From contig JACKFK010000005.1 in assembly GCA_020632515.1 (NCBI GenBank), positions 29,327-93,326 on the forward strand: a DNA stretch of 64,000 nt, given 5' to 3'. Made by a program: the position numbers and the translations under genes. Source of the stretch: Candidatus Omnitrophota bacterium (lineage in GTDB: Bacteria; Omnitrophota; Gorgyraeia; Zapsychrales; Zapsychraceae). This document shows, piece after piece, positions 6,967 through 54,273 of this stretch; position 1 is the first letter of the stretch; each line of letters opens with the position of its first letter. The notes under the pieces were generated by a model that worked only from the letters and a program-made list of their open reading frames with translations, had not been told where the DNA came from and did not search any database.

Positions 6967-7812
6967 ATGGGAAAAATAATCAGCATTTGTAATCAGAAAG
7001 GTGGAACAGGAAAAACCACCACAACAGTTAATTTAGCCGCAGCCTTGGCAGAATTAGGGGCTCGTGTAGCTATTGTTGATTTGGATCCACAAGGAAATGC
7101 TACAAGCGGCGTCGGAGTAAATAAAAGCGAGCTCGAGTATTCCGTTTATGATTTACTATTAAATAGGGCGGAAATTAAGGATGTTTTAATTAAGAGCGTT
7201 GTTAAAGGTGTAGATATTATTCCTTGTAATATTAGCCTTACGGGCGCCGAGATTGAGTTGGTTGGAGCTTTATCTAGGGAATCTCGATTAAAGAAAGCTC
7301 TAGAAATGATAAGGCAAGAGTATCATTTTATTTTTATTGACTCTCCCCCCTCCTTAGGTCTCCTTACTCTAAATTCTTTGGTTGCAAGCGGTTCCATCAT
7401 TATACCAATTCAATGTGAGTTTTATGCCTTGGAAGGAGTCTCTCAGCTTTTAAATACCCTTAATTTGGTAAAGGAAAGTTTAAATACAGGATTAGTTGTT
7501 GAAGGTGTTTTAATGACAATGGCGGATTACCGAACAAATTTAACTTCAGAAGTTATTTCTGAAATTACAAAATACTTTAAAGATAAAGTTTTTAAGGCTG
7601 TTATTCCTCGCAATATAAAATTGAGCGAAGCTCCTAGTTTTGGGAAGCCGATTAATTTGTACGATCCTTGCTCGATTGGCGCGAAGAAGTATAAAGAATT
7701 AGCGGAAGAGTTGTTGGTTAGGAATCCAAATGTTTTGGACATTAATAAGAAGGGAAATGATAATTTTGAAAATGTCCAAAAAGAAAATATTGTCCAATCA
7801 GACAAAATTTAA
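6967..7812 (+). CDS. parA: Chromosome partitioning ATPase ParA/Soj
   Basis: Deviant Walker A NQKGGTGKTTT and MinD/ParA architecture. Start taken at the ATG giving MGKIISI; the ORF is open from 6961. Confidence 0.92.
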   Translation: MGKIISICNQKGGTGKTTTTVNLAAALAELGARVAIVDLDPQGNATSGVGVNKSELEYSVYDLLLNRAEIKDVLIKSVVKGVDIIPCNISLTGAEIELVGALSRESRLKKALEMIRQEYHFIFIDSPPSLGLLTLNSLVASGSIIIPIQCEFYALEGVSQLLNTLNLVKESLNTGLVVEGVLMTMADYRTNLTSEVISEITKYFKDKVFKAVIPRNIKLSEAPSFGKPINLYDPCSIGAKKYKELAEELLVRNPNVLDINKKGNDNFENVQKENIVQSDKI

Positions 7813-11721: not shown

Positions 11722-11793
<72 letters not shown>

Positions 11794-11841
11794 TTTTAGG
11801 CGTTGTATCTTTTGATAAGAGACCGGAAATTAAAATTTTTT

Positions 11842-11924
11842 GGGCAAGTGGTGGAATGGCATACACGCAGGACTTAAAATCCTGTGGCCGTAAGGCCGTG
11901 TGGGTTCGACTCCCACCTTGCCCA
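11842..11924 (+). tRNA. tRNA-Leu (TAA)
   Basis: Acceptor GGGCAAG/CTTGCCC, anticodon loop CTTAAAA, long variable arm (GGCCGTAAGGCC), T-loop GGTTCGACTCC. Confidence 0.9.
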
Positions 11925-11987
11925 TGTTTACATTTAAAGGTGAAGCTTTTAACTTTTAGATTGGGTTATTAGAACAAAAGAATTTTC

Positions 11988-12026
11988 GGCCCCCGTAAAA
12001 CATTTCCACGGGGCCATTTCTTTTTT
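11988..12026 (+). terminator. Intrinsic terminator after tRNA-Cys/Leu
   Basis: GC stem GGCCCC(C)GT / ACGGGGCC, followed by ATTTCTTTTTT. Confidence 0.7.
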
Positions 12027-12050
12027 AAACGTGATTTATAGAATAAAAAA

Positions 12051-12127
12051 GGACCCGTAGCTCAGTTGGTTAGAGTGTTTCCTTGACATGGAAAAGGTCA
12101 CAAGTTCGAATCTTGTCGGGTCCACCA
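12051..12127 (+). tRNA. tRNA-Val (GAC), CCA encoded
   Basis: Acceptor GGACCCG/CGGGTCC, D-arm GCTCAGTTGGTTAGAG, anticodon loop TTGACAT, T-arm ACAAG-TTCGAAT-CTTGT, 3' ACCA. Confidence 0.92.
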
Positions 12128-21099: not shown

Positions 21100-21258
21100 T
21101 AATATCCCTGCGGTGTTTGTTAGAGAGTTATTTAAAAGAACCTAGACTTATTAAAGGGACGCTATACTTTCTAATTGTCTGAGGATGATTAGAAGTGGTA
21201 CCCACGTTGTGGAGCGGTTCACCTTTAAGTTCTCTCGACGGCATATGCGGGGATATTA
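21100..21258 (+). ncRNA. ssrS: Structured RNA, 6S RNA-like (candidate ssrS)
   Basis: A 198-nt non-coding gap that folds by hand into a long interrupted rod.
- 21101-21111 AATATCCCTGC pairs with 21247-21257 GCGGGGATATT.
- AGAGAG (21122-21127) pairs with TCTCT (21231-21235), continued by G-U pairs.
- GAACC (21138-21142) pairs with GGTTC (21216-21220).
- The enclosed open region has an apical hairpin TTCTAAT/ATTAGAA (21169-21194) and a small 3'-side hairpin CCAC-GTT-GTGG.
The 5' UCCCUGCGGUGUUUG and 3' UUCACCUU...CGGCAUAUGCGGGGAU resemble my recollection of enterobacterial 6S ends. A 5-formyl-THF cyclo-ligase gene lies nearby, as ygfA does next to E. coli ssrS. Confidence 0.5.
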
Positions 21259-45685: not shown

Positions 45686-45690
45686 GATAT

Positions 45691-45720
45691 AAAAAGGGAC
45701 ACAAAAATGTGTCCCTTTTT
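45691..45720. terminator. Bidirectional intrinsic terminator between convergent nqrF and nqrM
   Basis: AAAAAGGGACAC - AAAAAT - GTGTCCCTTTTT. A- and T-runs flank a GC-containing stem. Confidence 0.8.
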
Positions 45721-45881
45721 TATTTATCACAATCTAAAGGGTTTTTGCCTTCGGCCCGGCAGGCACAAGAGTGAGGATCTACAGAACAGCCTTTTTTTAA
45801 GGTCTTCTTCGCAAAAATTAGGCCAATGGCCATAGCAGCAAAACAAATTCCAAAAATAAGAAGGGTGATTAAAAAATTCAT
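45720..45881 (-). CDS. nqrM: NqrM-like (DUF539) Na+-NQR maturation protein
   Basis: Taken from the internal Met: MNFLITLLIFGICFAAMAIGLIFAKKTLKKGCSVDPHSCACRAEGKNPLDCDK. It has one TM plus a Cys-rich tail, like NqrM, and is adjacent to nqrF. TTGTGT-17-TATAAT lies just upstream, with TATAAT ending 6 nt before this ATG. The ORF is open to 45947. Confidence 0.6.
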   Translation of the reverse strand: MNFLITLLIFGICFAAMAIGLIFAKKTLKKGCSVDPHSCACRAEGKNPLDCDK

Positions 45882-45996
45882 AGGAACATTATAGAAGAAT
45901 CGTTTTAATAACACAAGAAACTTTGTAAAAGTGTAATATTTGATCATTTCGGATCTGGCGAAGTAACGTTTAGAAAAAGGAATATGGGAGAAGTCA

Positions 45997-47235
45997 ATGC
46001 CTAAAAAAGTAACACAAAGTAAAAAATTAAATGTTAATCAAAGTCAGGAATTAAGCGTTTTACGTAAGGTTGTTGATATAACGAATTCAGAACTTGATCT
46101 ATCTTTTATATTAAGCGAAGTTGTAAAGATTGTTACTGAAATGACAAAAGCGGATTCAGTTTTTATTTATTTATTCGACGAGAAAAAAAGACATTTGGTT
46201 TTAATGGCTTCAAAAACACCGCATAAAAAAGAATTAGGCAGTATTATTTTAAAATCTGGAGAAGGGATTACTGGATGGGTTGCGCGCGAAAACAGACCTG
46301 TTGCTATTTCTGAAAACGCGTATGCGGATAAACGTTTTAAAAATTTCGATGTTCTGCCAGAAGATAGATATGAAGCCTTTTTATCTGTGCCGATTGTTCA
46401 TAAAAATAAGGCTATCGGCGTTATTAATGTTCAGCATAAAAAGTCACATGAACATGCGGAGAGCACGATTAGTTTAATGTCAACGATTGCTAAGCAAATC
46501 AGCGGTGTTATTGAGCACGCGCGTTTATATGAGGAAACAAAGAAAAAAGCTTTACAGTTTGACAGCCTGCAAAAAGTAAGCGAATCAATAACGTCCAAAG
46601 CTTATTTAGATGAAATTTTAAATCTAATAGTTGTGGTTACCGCGGAAATGTTAAATTCAAAAATTTGTTCAATTATGTTATTAGATAAAAAAGGAAAAGA
46701 ATTGGAAATCTGTGCGACGCAAAGTTTAAGCACAGAGTATAAAAAGAAACCAAATTTAAAAGTTGATGAAAGTTTAAGCGGCGAGGTTATCAAAATAAAG
46801 AAGCCGATTGCTATTTACGATGTGCGGGAAGATAAAAAATATCGTTTTAAAGATTTGGCTATTAAAGAGAATTTGACTTCCATGGTTGCGATTCCAATGG
46901 TGCTTAAGGATAAAGCTATTGGTGTTATCAATGTTTATACAAAAGAGCATCATATTTTTTCTGAAGAAGAAATTAATGTTTTGCAAATTGTTGCTAACCA
47001 AGCTGCTGTTGCCGTCGAGAATACGAAGTTAATGGAAGAGGCTATTAAATCGAAAGAGGCTCTAGAGGCGAGGAAAGTTATTGAGCGGGCTAAAGGTATT
47101 TTGATGGAAATGAATAATTTGAATGAAGCGGCAGCGCATCGGCTTATTCATAAAAAAGCTATGGATTCGTGTAAATCGATGAAAGAAATTGCGGAATCCA
47201 TTATATTGATGGATGAATTTCAAAAAGGAAAATAA
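45997..47235 (+). CDS. GAF-GAF-ANTAR RNA-binding antiterminator-type regulator
   Basis: 412 aa. Two GAF-like units, each ending in IGVINV (..AIGVINVQHK.., ..AIGVINVYTK..). C-terminal ANTAR domain: LEARKVIERAKGILMEMNNLNEAAAHRLIHKKAMDSCKSMKEIAESII. Confidence 0.85.
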   Translation: MPKKVTQSKKLNVNQSQELSVLRKVVDITNSELDLSFILSEVVKIVTEMTKADSVFIYLFDEKKRHLVLMASKTPHKKELGSIILKSGEGITGWVARENRPVAISENAYADKRFKNFDVLPEDRYEAFLSVPIVHKNKAIGVINVQHKKSHEHAESTISLMSTIAKQISGVIEHARLYEETKKKALQFDSLQKVSESITSKAYLDEILNLIVVVTAEMLNSKICSIMLLDKKGKELEICATQSLSTEYKKKPNLKVDESLSGEVIKIKKPIAIYDVREDKKYRFKDLAIKENLTSMVAIPMVLKDKAIGVINVYTKEHHIFSEEEINVLQIVANQAAVAVENTKLMEEAIKSKEALEARKVIERAKGILMEMNNLNEAAAHRLIHKKAMDSCKSMKEIAESIILMDEFQKGK

Positions 47236-47250
47236 TTTTTATCCCCCCCC

Positions 47251-47279
47251 TTGACAAAATAAACAAGGGGTTGTATACT
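47251..47279 (+). promoter_or_regulatory. Sigma70-type promoter for the amtB-glnK leader
   Basis: TTGACA (47251-47256), 17-nt spacer, TATACT (47274-47279). Confidence 0.6.
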
Positions 47280-47286
47280 TCGAGCA

Positions 47287-47331
47287 TTAAGACAAAGATG
47301 TCTTAAATTGATTTGCAGGACAAAGAAGTCC
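47287..47331 (+). promoter_or_regulatory. Tandem hexaloop hairpins (ANTAR-target type), unit 1
   Basis: P1 is TTAAGAC-AAAGAT-GTCTTAA (47287-47306). P2 is GGAC-AAAGAA-GTCC (47318-47331). Both loops have 6 nt with A at position 1 and G at position 4. The P2 3' arm is part of the 5' arm of terminator T1. Confidence 0.7.
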
Positions 47332-47367
47332 GGATCCAATAGTGAAATTGGCCGGGCTTATTTTTTT
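47326..47367 (+). terminator. Leader terminator T1
   Basis: Base stem AAGTCCGG/CCGGGCTT (one G-U), 2-nt bulge, tip CCAAT-AGTGAA-ATTGG, then ATTTTTTT. Confidence 0.75.
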
Positions 47368-47383
47368 GAGACAATGATGTCTC
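47368..47383 (+). promoter_or_regulatory. Hexaloop hairpin (ANTAR-target type), unit 2
   Basis: GAGAC-AATGAT-GTCTC. The loop has A at position 1 and G at position 4. The 3' arm overlaps the 5' arm of T2. Confidence 0.6.
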
Positions 47384-47415
47384 CTTTTAAAGGTTTATTT
47401 GAAAGGAGATTTTTT
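47380..47415 (+). terminator. Leader terminator T2
   Basis: TCTCCTTT / AAAGGAGA (8 bp, 14-nt loop) followed by TTTTTTATTT. Confidence 0.7.
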
Positions 47416-47452
47416 ATTTATATCTATTTGGCCAAGGAGGTTAAATAGATTA

Positions 47453-47468
47453 AGGACACAGAGGTCCT
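47453..47468 (+). promoter_or_regulatory. Hexaloop hairpin (ANTAR-target type), unit 3
   Basis: AGGAC-ACAGAG-GTCCT. The loop has A at position 1 and G at position 4. The 3' arm overlaps the 5' arm of T3. An upstream hairpin ATCTATTT/AAATAGAT (47422-47450) presents AAGGAG in its loop. Confidence 0.65.
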
Positions 47469-47506
47469 CTTATTCAACCAAAGCTGGTTGAGAGAGGGCC
47501 TTTTTT
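47462..47506 (+). terminator. Leader terminator T3
   Basis: Base stem AGGTCCTCT/AGAGGGCCT (one G-U), 2-nt bulge, tip TTCAACC-AAAGCT-GGTTGAG, then TTTTTT. Same architecture as T1. Confidence 0.8.
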
Positions 47507-47551
47507 ATTGGCAATAAGATAATTTTCATATTGAAGGAGAAGGAGAGAAAA

Positions 47552-48880
47552 ATGATCAAACGGTTATGGAGAAAAGGAATCATGAAGGTGACAATGGGCT
47601 TGGGAGGAATGCTGTTTTTATCTGGATCAGCGTTCGCTCAAGAAGGTGTTAGTCAAGAGATGTTCACGGTTAATAACACTTGGATGTTGGTGGCTACTTT
47701 TTTGGTATTTGTGATGCATTTAGGTTTTGCAACATTAGAATCCGGTTTAACCAGAGCTAAGAATACAGTAAATATTCTTTTTAAAAATGTGGCAATCCTT
47801 TCAATTGGGTTGTTGACTTACGCAGTCGTAGGATTCAATCTAATGTATCCCAGTGAATGGGCTGCTGGATTATGGCTTCCGAAATTAGCTTTTGGTATTG
47901 GACTACCAGCCGATTATATTTCCGGACAATATGCAGATGGAGGGTATACTTACTGGACTGATTTTATTTTTCAGGCTATGTTTGCGGCAACTTGTGCGAC
48001 AATTGTTTCCGGAGCGGTTGCCGAACGGATTAAGCTGCACAGTTTTTTACTTTTCTCGACAATTTATGTAGCCTTTGTTTATCCATTTTTAGGAAGCTGG
48101 AAATGGGGCGGCGGTTGGTTAGATAACATGGGTTTTTATGATTTTGCTGGGTCTACATTAGTTCATTCTGTTGGAGGTTGGGCAGCATTGGCTTGTGTTT
48201 TAATCTTGGGGCCACGTTATGGAAAATATAATGGTTCTGCCAAGGCTATTCCTGGACACAGCATGCCTTTAGCCACTATTGGAGTTTTTCTTTTATGGTT
48301 AGGGTGGTTTGGTTTTAATGGCGGGTCTGTTCTTTCCGCTGATCCAGAATTAGTTTCTTTTGTCTTTGTTACAACTACATTAGCTGCAGCTGCGGGTGTT
48401 ATAGGAGCGATGTTTACTTCAGAATTACTTTTGAAAAAACCGGATTTGTCGATGGTGTTAAACGGGTCTTTGGCTGGTTTGGTTGGGATAACAGCAGGAG
48501 CAGATACTGTTAGTGTACTTTCCTCGATTATAATAGGATTAATCGCAGGGGCTTTGGTTGTGGTCTCGGTAATATTTATCGATTCGAAATTAAAAATAGA
48601 TGATCCTGTTGGGGCCTTATCTGTTCATTTGGTTTGCGGTATTTGGGGAACCCTTGCGGTAGGGATCTTCAGTACAAATCCTGAGCATAGCTTTATGACG
48701 CAATTAATAGGTGTTTTAGCCTATGGAAGCGTTTCTTTTATTGCCGCCTATGGTATCTTTTCAGTTATAAAATCTTTTATGGGCGTACGTGTAACGGAAA
48801 GAGAAGAGATAAGAGGTTTGGATATCGACGAACATGGTATGGAGGCTTATGCAGGATTCCAAATATTTACAACGGAATAG
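47552..48880 (+). CDS. amtB: Ammonium transporter AmtB
   Basis: Signal peptide (..SGSAFAQEG) and Amt family motifs (DFAGSTLVHSVGGWAAL; GWFGFNGG). SD GGAGAAGGAGAG lies before ATG 47552; the ORF is open from TTG 47531. Confidence 0.94.
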   Translation: MIKRLWRKGIMKVTMGLGGMLFLSGSAFAQEGVSQEMFTVNNTWMLVATFLVFVMHLGFATLESGLTRAKNTVNILFKNVAILSIGLLTYAVVGFNLMYPSEWAAGLWLPKLAFGIGLPADYISGQYADGGYTYWTDFIFQAMFAATCATIVSGAVAERIKLHSFLLFSTIYVAFVYPFLGSWKWGGGWLDNMGFYDFAGSTLVHSVGGWAALACVLILGPRYGKYNGSAKAIPGHSMPLATIGVFLLWLGWFGFNGGSVLSADPELVSFVFVTTTLAAAAGVIGAMFTSELLLKKPDLSMVLNGSLAGLVGITAGADTVSVLSSIIIGLIAGALVVVSVIFIDSKLKIDDPVGALSVHLVCGIWGTLAVGIFSTNPEHSFMTQLIGVLAYGSVSFIAAYGIFSVIKSFMGVRVTEREEIRGLDIDEHGMEAYAGFQIFTTE

Positions 48881-48922
48881 AAATTTTTAAAGTAATTTTA
48901 AATTAAATTTAGGAGGATATAC

Positions 48923-49264
48923 ATGAAATTAATAATAGCTATGATAAAGCCGCATCAATTGCCAGCGACAAAAAAAGCGCTTTTTGATGCAGGAATTACT
49001 AAAATGACTGTTACAAACGTATTGGGTTGTGGACAGCAAGGAGGTTATAGTGAAACCTATCGCGGGGTAAAGCAAGAAATCAATTTGTTAAAAAAGATTC
49101 GAATTGAAATCGCGGTCAATGACGCTTTTGAAGAACCTACGATCAAAGCAATTGTAAAGGGAGCAAAGACAGGGCGAATTGGTGATGGGAAAATATTTGT
49201 GCTTGATTTGCCGAGATGTATTCGTATCCGCACAGAGGAGGAAGGATCAGAAGCTATTGGGTAG
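48923..49264 (+). CDS. glnK: Nitrogen regulatory protein P-II (GlnK/GlnB)
   Basis: 113 aa. [13 protein letters not shown]..., a T-loop with YRG, and the C-terminal GDGKIFV..L...IRIRT.E.G. Directly downstream of amtB. Confidence 0.93.
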
Positions 49265-49342
49265 GCTTTGAAGAAGGGTATAACAAGGTTATTAAATGTG
49301 TAACTTATGACAGTGTAATGACTTTGGGGTTAAGAAAAAAAC

Positions 49343-49371
49343 TTGACAAAAACAAATCTAAATTGTATATT
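49343..49371 (+). promoter_or_regulatory. Sigma70-type promoter for the type III GS leader
   Basis: TTGACA (49343-49348), 17-nt spacer, TATATT (49366-49371). Confidence 0.55.
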
Positions 49372-49455
49372 TATGAATCTTCTTTAATATATTTATTTTA
49401 AAGAAGGGCTGAATTAAAAAATAAGAAAGCACTATAATGTGTGACTCAAAATATT

Positions 49456-49471
49456 AGGGCAACGAAGTCCT
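49456..49471 (+). promoter_or_regulatory. Hexaloop hairpin (ANTAR-target type) in the glnN leader
   Basis: AGGGC-AACGAA-GTCCT. The loop has A at position 1 and G at position 4. The 3' arm is the start of the terminator 5' arm. Confidence 0.65.
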
Positions 49472-49511
49472 TCTTAAAAGTTAGACAATTTTTAAGAAGG
49501 ACTTTTCTTTT
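49466..49511 (+). terminator. glnN leader terminator
   Basis: 14-bp stem AGTCCTTCTTAAAA / TTTTAAGAAGGACT, 10-nt loop, followed by TTTCTTTTC. Lies 47 nt upstream of the glnN ATG. Confidence 0.8.
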
Positions 49512-49557: not shown

Positions 49558-51705
49558 ATGGCTTCAAGATCTAGATTAAAAGAAATAGTTAATAAAGGAG
49601 AGTTAGACATGGCGGAATTAACACAGATCAGGACCGTTCCAGAATATTTTGGCGAGAATGTTTTTAATTTAAAAACTATGCGCAATTATCTTTCTGCGAA
49701 GGCCTATAAATCATTAAGTGAAACTATTAAGAATAACGGAAAATTAGATCCTACCATTGCTGATGAGGTTGCGGATGCGATGAAAACCTGGGCTGTTTCA
49801 AAAGGGGCGACACATTATACTCATTGGTTTCAGCCGTTAACAGGAACAACGGCAGAAAAACACGATTCCTTTATTCAGCCCGACGGAGAAGGTGGTGTTT
49901 TATTGACATTTTCCGGTGAAGAATTAATCCAAGGAGAACCAGATGCGTCGAGTTTTCCGTCAGGGGGGTTGCGGCCAACTTTTGAAGCTCGAGGGTATAC
50001 TGGATGGGATCCAACAAGTCCTGCTTTTATTAAAGAAGGACCTCAAGGAGCTACTTTGTGTATTCCTACTTATTTCGTCGGATGGAAAGGAGAAGCGTTA
50101 GATAAGAAAACTCCTTTGCTTCGTTCGATGAAAGCTTTATCTAAGCAAGTTGGACGTTTAGCTGATTTGTTAGGCATTAAAGCAAAGCAAAACGCCTATG
50201 CAACATTAGGTGGGGAGCAGGAATATTTTCTAATTGATAGAGATTTTTATTATCAGCGGATTGATCTTGTTCAAACAGGAAGAACTTTATTTGGAAAAGA
50301 ACCAGCAAAACATCAACAAATGGCAGACCATTATTTTGGCGCCATTAAATCACGTGTTATCGCTTTTATGGAAGATTTGGATCGTGAAATGTGGAAATTA
50401 GGGGCTCCGATCAAAACACGACACAATGAAGTTTCTCCAGGGCAGTTTGAAATAGCTCCAATATTTGAAAATCAAAATTTAGGAGTCGATCATAATATGT
50501 TGTGCATGGAAGTTATGCAAAAAGTCGCGGAAAAACATGGTCTGGCCTGTTTACTTCATGAGAAACCGTTTAAAGGTGTCAATGGATCGGGAAAACATAA
50601 TAATTGGTCTGTGACGGGGCCTGATGGAAAAAATTGGTTATCCCCAGGTGAAAATCCTCATGAAAATGAACGTTTTTTGGTTATGGTTGCCGCAATTATT
50701 AAAGCTGTTGATAATTATTCTGATTTGTTAAGAGCAGGTATTGCCTCGGCAGGAAATGATCATCGATTAGGTTCTCATGAAGCTCCACCAGCAATTGTTT
50801 CAATATATTTAGGAGAACAATTAACTGATATTTTTGAACAAATAGAAAAAGGTTCGGCAACAAAAAGTTCGAAACAAGGCGGGACGCTTGAAGTTGGTGT
50901 TGATTCATTACCTCCTTTGCCTCGTCATGCTTCAGATCGAAATAGAACTTCGCCATTTGCTTTTACTGGGTCAAAGTTTGAATTTCGAGCTGTTGGATCA
51001 GCTCATAGTTTAGCAGGTCCAAATATCATTATTAATACGATAGTAGCAGATGCTATTTCAGACATTTGTGAAGAATTAGAGGATGCTAAAAAAGGAAAAA
51101 AAGATATTAATAAAACTGCGCAAAAAATTGTACAGGAAATTATTAAAAAACATAAAAGGATCATATTTAACGGTGATAATTATACCGAAGATTGGGTTAA
51201 AGAAGCAAAGAAGCGTGGATTACCAAATATGAAAACCACGCCGGAAGCCTTAGAGGTAATGAAGGATAAGAGAATTGCCGAGCTTTTTGAAAGGCATAAA
51301 GTTCTTTCGAAGAAAGAATTAGATTCTCGATATGGTGTTTATACGGAAACATATGAAACCATTGTTAGATATGAGGGGGCATTAGCCGCCGATATGGTAA
51401 AGACATTAATTGTTCCAGCAGCATTGGAATACACTGCCAATTTAGCGGAAACAATTAAATCAATAGAAAGTATTAATAAAACAAAAGCAACAGCTGTCAG
51501 AAATATTCTTAAAGATGTTGCTAGTAATATGGAAAAAGCAGCTGATGAAACAACTAAGTTAGAAACAGCATTGAAGGGGGCTTCGACGGATAAAATTCGA
51601 AAAATAATGGCTGATTTACGTGAGGCTGTTGACGCTCTTGAGGGTTTGGTTCCAGCAGAAATTTGGCCATTACCTTCATATGCAGAAATGCTGTTTATTT
51701 CATAA
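49558..51705 (+). CDS. glnN: Glutamine synthetase type III
   Basis: 715 aa, the GSIII size class. N-terminal FGENVFN..MR..L; catalytic region [39 protein letters not shown]. Confidence 0.92.
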
Positions 51706-51751
51706 GCATTGAATTGTTTTAAAAAAATAATATTAGAATGCGCAGTTTGGG

Positions 51752-51786
51752 GGGGTAGGTTTATAACCTGCCCCTTACGTTTTTTA
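51752..51786 (+). terminator. Intrinsic terminator candidate after glnN
   Basis: GGGGTAGGTT - TAT - AACCTGCCCC (one G-U), then TTACGTTTTTT. It ends 5 nt before the next ATG. Confidence 0.55.
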
Positions 51787-51791
51787 GCTTT

Positions 51792-54118: not shown

Positions 54119-54273
54119 TAAAGCTGTAACTATTAGAGATTTATCGGGTTTGAGGTTAAAAAGGCATTTAGTGGTTGCATTATCAAGAAAAATGTGTAAA
54201 ATGGATAAAATTGAATCGTAGCCTATAATTGCTAAAATTTTGTGTAACCTATTAAAATAATATTAAAATAACT

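Follow-up and report, generated by a model that had tools for sequence, protein, structure and literature searches.

We analyzed a nitrogen-related locus in a 64-kb stretch of Candidatus Omnitrophota DNA (contig JACKFK010000005.1, positions 29,327 to 93,326; hereafter the window, whose own numbering is used throughout), in which the gene for a predicted RNA-binding antiterminator is followed by two leaders, one before amtB-glnK and one before glnA, that together carry five short hairpins. The regulator gene (45997-47235, + strand) encodes 412 amino acids (aa) in the order GAF-GAF-ANTAR: Pfam finds two GAF domains (E-values of 1e-35 to 1e-38) and the ANTAR domain PF03861 at residues 353-403 (E-value 2e-19), and the ANTAR region matches the solved structures of EutV, Rv1626, and NasR. 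This gene lies directly 5′ of the first leader and ends 52 nucleotides (nt) before its first hairpin. An earlier note on this DNA, in which the hairpins were first described, had not tied them to the regulator. Downstream on the same strand, the amtB open reading frame (ORF) opens at 47531 and ends at 48880 (Ammonium_transp, 3.7e-115), the ATG at 47552 behind GGAGAAGGAGAG being the likelier start. The PII gene glnK follows at 48923-49264 on the + strand (P-II, 6.6e-26), and the two genes form a predicted regulated operon (47531-49264, +). The second leader precedes glnA, which encodes a type III glutamine synthetase (GS-III; 49558-51705, +; GSIII_N, 5.2e-78, Gln-synt_C, and Gln-synt_C-ter).

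Hairpins and terminators in the two leaders

The ANTAR element defined by Ramesh et al. (2012, PMC3369931) consists of hexaloop hairpins whose loop has A first and G fourth above a conserved closing pair, with the P2 hairpin lying over a terminator and the P1 hairpin 5 to 12 nt upstream. All five hairpins of the earlier note were located, each on the + strand, and all five loops carry this A and G and are closed by a C-G pair. In the amtB-glnK leader, H1 (47287-47306, TTAAGAC-AAAGAT-GTCTTAA, 7 base pair (bp) stem, -6.2 kcal/mol) overlaps no terminator and is placed as a P1 hairpin, with a gap of 11 nt to H2. The predicted P2 antiterminators of attenuators 1, 2, and 3 are H2 (47318-47331, GGAC-AAAGAA-GTCC), H3 (47368-47383, GAGAC-AATGAT-GTCTC), and H4 (47453-47468, AGGAC-ACAGAG-GTCCT), and that of the glnA attenuator is H5 (49456-49471, AGGGC-AACGAA-GTCCT), which contains a G-U pair. 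The five had previously been treated as equal copies, a view that gives way here to one P1 (H1) and P2 hairpins at H2-H5.

Both leaders follow near-consensus sigma-70 promoters, TTGACA-17-TATACT before amtB-glnK (47251-47279, +, 11 of 12 consensus matches) and TTGACA-17-TATATT before glnA (49343-49371, +). The first should start transcription at about 47285-47287, at the foot of H1. Every hairpin lies downstream of a -10 element and none overlaps a promoter, which places all of them within the transcribed leaders. Three tandem terminators stand before amtB and one before glnA, all on the + strand and each followed by a U tract. T1 (47328-47367) has its stem-loop at 47328-47357 (GTCCGG..CCGGGC, -12.7 kcal/mol) and then TTATTTTTTT; T2 (47380-47419) has a stem-loop at 47380-47409 (-13.5 kcal/mol) and then TTTTTTATTT; T3 (47463-47509) has a stem-loop at 47463-47500 (-22.6 kcal/mol) and then TTTTTTATT; and T4 (49464-49511) has a stem-loop at 49464/49467-49502/49505 (-18 to -22 kcal/mol) and then TTTTCTTTT. 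The terminator energies run from -12.7 to -22.6 kcal/mol in the terminator scan and from -10.2 to -23.8 kcal/mol for fixed segments.

The hairpins and terminators share sequence. The 3′ arm GTCY of H2, H3, H4, and H5 supplies the opening 4-5 nt of the 5′ arm in T1, T2, T3, and T4, respectively; for instance, the 3′ arm of H2 (47328-47331) doubles as the first 4 nt of T1. H3 comes directly after the U tract of T1. Hexaloops of the same kind are also found at terminator tips. The T1 apex (47336-47351, +, CCAAT-AGTGAA-ATTGG) has an A..G.. hexaloop and lies 4 nt after H2 and 16 nt before H3, and the T3 apex (47473-47492, +, TTCAACC-AAAGCT-GGTTGAG), a C-G-closed A..G.. hexaloop hairpin 4 nt after H4, scores 14.2 bits with the covariance model described below. 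Another hairpin, 2 nt before H4 (47422-47450, +), has a 12-bp stem that carries the loop AAGGA (C-AAGGAG-G if a mismatch is allowed). Its pentaloop breaks the hexaloop rule; its position relative to related leaders makes it a possible degenerate P1, since the related locus L001 has in its place the P1 hairpin TTATAATC-ACAGAA-GATTATAG.

On their own the hairpins are weak (-4 to -6 kcal/mol), and in free minimum-free-energy folds of both leaders all four terminators form, together with H1. Both leaders fold far more stably than shuffled sequences, with z = -7.8 for the amtB-glnK leader and z = -3.8 for the glnA leader. When the hexaloop hairpins are imposed, the folds lose 3.7-9.4 kcal/mol of stability, and the residual terminator stems end 4-8 nt short of the U tract; the T1 apex persists when H1 and H2 are enforced. 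In these folding models, the competition between hairpin and terminator is the anatomy of a protein-stabilized antiterminator.

A search of both strands of the window with GRCANNGANGTC gave five matches, all on the + strand and confined to the amtB-glnK and glnA leaders. The chance level is a mean of 0.21 matches with a maximum of 2, and none of 100 dinucleotide shuffles of the window got to five. A relaxed pattern with one mismatch allowed was uninformative (40 matches against 27 expected). We also trained a covariance model, 16 nt long, on 54 hairpins of the window and its relatives and scanned the whole window with filters off. The model, whose seed already contained all five window hairpins and the T3 apex, ranks H1-H5 at places 1-4 and 6 with 17.7-20.6 bits. 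The T3 apex aside, the remaining matches of at least 14.8 bits (52568, 32657, 50107, and 32507) all lie in ORFs, and none of the four is followed by a terminator; many weaker A..G.. hexaloop matches occur in the coding DNA of the window. Pattern and model thus bear out, for the window, the claim that the motif has five copies, all of them in the two nitrogen leaders, and its place before amtB-glnK and glnA agrees with its proposed role as the mark of a nitrogen regulon. No site turned up in three further stretches that we searched, namely 54119-54273 (ahead of gltB), 51706-51791 (from glnA to the GATase gene), and 45686-45996 (ahead of the regulator gene); likewise, the absence of a similar element before gltB or nadE, as previously reported, was confirmed for gltB and for the GATase-nadE pair.

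Conservation in related loci

The regulator protein was used to retrieve 24 further loci (L001-L024), mostly labelled Candidatus Omnitrophota with a few other labels, in which its orthologs are 67-78% identical to the window protein. Most of the 24 keep the flanking order nqrF, regulator, amtB, glnK, GS-III, GATase, nadE. The leader comparison covers the 16 loci whose leader could be delimited. In these 16, the regulator adjoins the hairpin-bearing leader, and the leader contains GGRC-RNNGNN-GTCC hairpins that overlap terminators, with the 3′ arm opening the terminator (TCC...). Upstream of most delimited leaders stands a cttgaca...tatact promoter. A second hairpin is often present upstream, its stem longer and variable and its loop an A..G.. 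hexaloop; a strong P1 was found in about 16 of 40 units (4 of the 40 from the window), with a gap of mostly 7-11 nt, and the rest are single or long-linker units. In the glnA-type leaders of the relatives, P1 stands 33-45 nt upstream of P2. Before glutamine-synthetase genes, the GGGC/GTCC stem is identical in 10 of 10 aligned P2 hairpins. The loop is freer than the pattern A-N-N-G-A-N first given for it, which proved too strict: position 5 varies in the relatives and position 1 can be G. Examples of C-G-closed G..G.. hairpins are GGAC-GAAGAT-GTCC in L020 and AGGGC-GACGGC-GTCCT in L023.

As a control on loop identity, we took every hexaloop hairpin of the window and the 24 loci that has a C-G closing pair and a stem of 4 bp or more, and sorted them into 16 loop classes. 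Since the aligned hairpins had been selected for their C-G closing pair, this count, in which that pair is constant, is the fairer test, and it shows a specific enrichment of A..G... On the intergenic + strand there were 54 hairpins of class A..G.. and 25 of class G..G.., against 0-10 in each of the other 14 classes, so that the A/G..G.. classes are 5- to 50-fold in excess of the other 14 in the same intergenic regions and on the same strand. On the intergenic - strand, only 6 A..G.. hairpins were counted, and the coding + strand gave 84 in about 300 kb. The stems are informative as well. Among 52 copies, the pair adjoining the closing pair is G-U 22 times and U-G once; a G-U at this stem position would be a mismatch in DNA and argues for RNA and against a DNA palindrome.

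A strict scan of the window and the 24 loci for hairpins joined to terminators returned 37 composites on the strand of the regulator and 3 dubious ones on the opposite strand. Those on the regulator's strand mostly precede amt, GS-III, and type I glutamine synthetase (GS-I) genes, with a few before unannotated ORFs. In these loci, the association with terminators and nitrogen genes that the earlier note had proposed to check is borne out. Attenuators of the same type stand before ptsP in L019 (10677-12998; GAF and PEP-utilising domains, 751 aa) and before a GS-I gene in L003 (9338-10884), from which we take the regulon to be wider in the phylum than in the window. Hairpin-plus-terminator units also precede the GAF-GAF-ANTAR gene itself in L016 (1757-1892), L017 (5895-5939), and L043 (4395-4439), which suggests autoregulation. 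In several related loci, a short ORF for a hydrophobic peptide lies between the attenuators and a divergent-type amt (L003, ~7500-7582, e.g. MIRQMEIMALLIGLSQIALAIGLFYAL; L009, ~7440-7600; L010, ~7560-7700; L024, ~7480-7600); it is absent from the window.

Proposed antitermination and its rivals

We consider it highly probable that the five hairpins are sites of the adjacent GAF-GAF-ANTAR protein and that they form four protein-dependent transcription attenuators. What leads us to read them as ANTAR sites is the adjacent ANTAR gene, the overlap with terminators, the non-random and strand-specific distribution, and the conservation. Two strong, probably constitutive promoters would start the amtB-glnK and glnA transcripts. 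When active protein is lacking, the RNA would fold into the terminators, T1 to T3 one after another ahead of amtB and T4 ahead of glnA, and transcription would stop. From the sequence and its predicted folds, we infer that active protein binds the hexaloops, through A1, G4, and the C-G closing pair, and that T1-T4 are then read through. Binding would stabilize the weak H2-H5, whose GTCY 3′ arm is the bottom of the terminator 5′ arm; the rest of the terminator stem would be parted from the U tract, and RNA polymerase would continue into the genes. H1, as P1 of the first attenuator, would be a recruitment hairpin by analogy with EutV.

The signal is likely nitrogen status, with low glutamine and/or high 2-oxoglutarate (nitrogen limitation) activating antitermination. 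The first GAF domain of the regulator (GAF1) matches the GAF domain of PtsP (PDB 3ci6) with an E-value of 2.7e-24 and the NCBIfam models of PtsP and NifA with 2.6e-45 and 2.9e-26, at scores far under the equivalog cut-offs since the match is to the GAF part alone. EI-Ntr's GAF domain binds glutamine (PMC4848567), and it is the likeness of GAF1 to this glutamine-binding PtsP/EI-Ntr domain and to the NifA GAF domain that points to nitrogen limitation as the input. Three Acidobacteriota loci (L025-L027) encode single-GAF ANTAR proteins whose GAF domain is 50-52% identical to the GAF1 of the window; a GAF1-type domain is thus fused to ANTAR outside Omnitrophota as well.

Several points weigh against this account. 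GAF domains take many ligands, and likeness to PtsP and NifA does not establish binding of glutamine or 2-oxoglutarate. H3, H4, and H5, in three of the four attenuators, are without a canonical P1 in the 5-12 nt linker of EutV: H3 has none within 12 nt, only the T1 apex 16 nt upstream, and for H5 no recognizable P1 was found in the glnA leader, where the hairpin GCAC-UAUAAU-GUGU (49429-49442) has the wrong loop for one. The region in which relatives carry P1 (49378-49442) holds a hairpin of 9-10 bp whose AU loop is 10 nt long (49379-49407), and the P1 of the glnA leader appears to have been lost or replaced in this genome. A search of the whole window with Rfam 15 at gathering thresholds returned tRNAs and 6S RNA only and nothing in the leaders. 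With E-values of up to 10 allowed, the leaders gave sub-threshold matches to rli56 (32.1 bits against 47), PyrR (30.7 against 54), and the PyrG leader, all driven by the terminator stems, and a literature search on rli56 turned up nothing useful. Lastly, the stems pair at 93.5% over the 54 hairpins and no shuffle got to the observed covariation score, but these statistics are circular, the hairpins having been picked for having stems, and are no independent proof; the loop-class control, which does not hinge on the chosen sequences, replaces the count of stem covariation.

We assign a small probability to a variant in which the hairpins are ANTAR sites and either GlnK or some other partner gates the GAF domains, or the terminated leader RNAs serve chiefly as decoys, as in EutX/Rli55. 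PII proteins gate some NifA proteins, GAF1 resembles the NifA GAF domain too, and glnK lies within the regulated operon, an arrangement that would give feedback; the closest relatives of GAF1, those of EI-Ntr, however, bind glutamine directly. In favor of decoys, EutV can be sequestered by single hexaloops of the small RNA EutX/Rli55 (PMC8934654), and the amtB leader would give three terminated species carrying 2-6 hexaloops. A decoy role, however, would add to antitermination in cis and not replace it.

That the leaders are metabolite-sensing riboswitches or protein-independent attenuators, with the hexaloop hairpins as parts of an aptamer such as a glutamine-binding RNA, is very unlikely, and we reject it. 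Both leaders are indeed highly structured, as the z-scores given above indicate, and they stand before nitrogen genes as glutamine riboswitches do. However, no Rfam family, glutamine riboswitches included, matched at gathering or at a convincing E-value, and the conserved unit, a mere 14-20 nt hairpin in many repeats at variable spacing, is too small for an aptamer. The hairpins are also 4-9 kcal/mol less stable than the competing terminators, which calls for an external stabilizer, and a protein with a matching RNA-binding domain is encoded in all 24 relatives, next to the hairpin-bearing leader in the 16 where one could be delimited.

We think still less of the view that the inverted repeats GAC-N6-GTC are DNA operators for a dimeric nitrogen repressor or activator, next to which the terminators would be incidental. 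They are short inverted repeats near strong promoters, and compensatory changes are equally expected of a DNA palindrome. This last point also limits the argument from compensatory stem changes on which the earlier note had relied: correct in itself, it is weak on five copies and does not separate RNA from DNA. However, every copy is 3′ of a -10 element in the transcribed leader and none is on a promoter, conservation lies in the loop (A1 and G4) and not in the arms, and the 3′ arm consistently overlaps a terminator. Together with the strand bias (54 against 6) and the G-U pairs at one stem position, these observations largely refute an operator, and the conclusion that the element acts at the RNA level holds on the strength of strand bias, G-U pairs, and terminator overlap. 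Chance repeats or generic terminator-associated sequence without specific recognition, for which one could cite how common short hairpins are in AT-rich intergenic DNA and how many weaker A..G.. hexaloops lie in coding DNA, are refuted by the shuffles, by the 5- to 50-fold excess in the loop-class control, and by the retention of the motif in the leaders of 16 relatives though their stems vary, and hardly merit any probability.

Known ANTAR systems and the chained leaders

ANTAR elements have already been reported before PII, ammonium transporter, and glutamine synthase genes in several phyla (PMC3369931). The idea that the hairpins define a candidate regulon motif is accordingly right in that they mark a small nitrogen regulon; the motif itself is the already-known ANTAR element (PMC3369931) and is near-identical to the GnfR word CAGGCAANGGCGCC (PMC2995071). 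The EutV/EutW system of the Enterococcus faecalis eut leaders shares with the present locus the A1/G4 hexaloops, the conserved closing pair, the P2 3′ arm lying over the terminator 5′ arm, and, at the first attenuator, a P1 about 5-12 nt upstream (11 nt between H1 and H2; where a strong P1 is present in the relatives, mostly 7-11 nt), and in both cases one protein reads, or here would read, several attenuators. EutV/EutW, in contrast, has a phosphorylated receiver domain and targets the eut genes, whereas the regulator here has two GAF domains, as in a one-component sensor without a kinase, and its targets would be amtB-glnK and glnA. Further differences are that the amtB leader has three attenuators in series and that three of the four attenuators are without a canonical P1. 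Antitermination by EutV is lost when P1 is deleted, and P1-P2 linkers in eut are 5-12 nt (PMC3369931); EutV linkers of 14 nt, or lengthened by 20 nt, impaired or abolished antitermination, whereas the glnA-type linkers of the relatives measure 33-45 nt. One hexaloop suffices as the minimal ANTAR site, and a protein dimer has been proposed to be recruited at P1 and passed to P2 (Walshaw et al. 2022, PMC8934654).

In Geobacter sulfurreducens, GnfK/GnfR controls nitrogen genes, including glnK-amtB, by ANTAR antitermination as proposed here (Ueki and Lovley 2010, PMC2995071), and the GnfR consensus CAGGCAANGGCGCC stands upstream of nifH and glnK-amtB (PMC2995071). The GnfR word (GGC-AANGGC-GCC) lies over terminators and has the loop pattern and C-G closing pair seen in the window. 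The stem words differ, GGC/GCC in Geobacter against GGRC/GTCC here, as does the phylum. GnfR is, moreover, a response regulator under a sigma-54/GnfLM cascade, whereas the present locus has a GAF-GAF sensor and promoters that look sigma-70 and constitutive. NasR (NIT-ANTAR) and AmiR resemble the window protein as one-component ANTAR regulators of nitrogen-source genes, encoded beside the target leader and associated with an A1/G4 hexaloop. Their sensors are a NIT domain or a pseudo-receiver with AmiC, in place of GAF-GAF; their systems (nasF, ami) have a single leader with a single terminator each, and their signal is nitrate or amide, against the glutamine or 2-oxoglutarate proposed here. The N-terminal GAF domains of PtsP (EI-Ntr) and NifA are the closest sequence relatives of GAF1. 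The output differs, being a phosphotransferase in PtsP, a sigma-54 activator in NifA, and an RNA-binding ANTAR domain here, where ligand binding is predicted by similarity.

We take the locus to be a known type of switch in an uncultured phylum, with a GAF-GAF sensor that appears uncharacterized. Omnitrophota is a phylum without isolates (PMC10066038), and our literature search found no paper joining ANTAR and Omnitrophota. GAF-ANTAR is a common architecture that was called uncharacterized in 2012 (PMC3369931), and the passages on GAF in a 2025 review give no characterized GAF-ANTAR example. The locus pairs such a protein with obvious targets and a plausible ligand, and it offers a testable nitrogen-control circuit for Candidatus Omnitrophota, comprising sensor, RNA sites, terminators, and targets. 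For annotation, the hairpin word can be entered as an ANTAR site and is best searched jointly with the overlapping terminator.

The amtB leader has its three attenuators in series with a canonical P1 at the first only, and single-P2 units after an initial dual-hairpin unit recur in L002, L013, and L020. These serial single-hairpin attenuators and the long-linker glnA leaders misfit the P1-linker-P2 rule of EutV and could help define the requirements of ANTAR proteins. The T1 apex is a possible extra ANTAR site. When the hexaloop hairpins inside the terminators of the 40 units were sorted by loop, 12 of 30 fell into the two R..G.. classes of 16. ANTAR-like terminator tips, often C-G closed, are also present at L002 7377-7392 and L013 7487-7500 and were seen again in three new loci from metagenomes (L037, L038, and L043); where attenuators are arrayed in tandem, 10-17 nt separate such a tip from the P2 that follows. 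These positions are suggestive, and only that, of a terminator tip acting as the recruitment hairpin of the next attenuator, since the counts are small and come from phylogenetically related units.

A more far-reaching and speculative reading, which we regard as possible and rather doubtful, joins these elements into a one-component master nitrogen regulator with direct sensing of glutamine/2-oxoglutarate, control by antitermination only, and chained leader arrays. The protein may on this reading control amtB-glnK, glnA, ptsP, and its own gene from constitutive promoters, and the dimer may be handed along H1, H2, the T1 apex, H3, and on. If true, the chained arrays would represent a new architecture among ANTAR switches, and the handover model of Walshaw et al. 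would find a natural test in them.

The remaining features of the window surround this locus or lie apart from it. By Pfam, the nqr genes extend to 45685 on the 5′ side, and the GATase gene and nadE lie 3′ of glnA. Immediately 3′ of glnA stands a G/C-rich hairpin with TTTTTT after it (51750-51786), so that the GATase-nadE pair may have a transcript of its own or depend on read-through. A 75-aa ORF with no Pfam match lies on the - strand (45720-45947), between nqrF and the regulator gene. The window also contains three clustered tRNA genes at 11722-12124 and a 6S RNA at 21102-21257 (Rfam, 50.6 bits).

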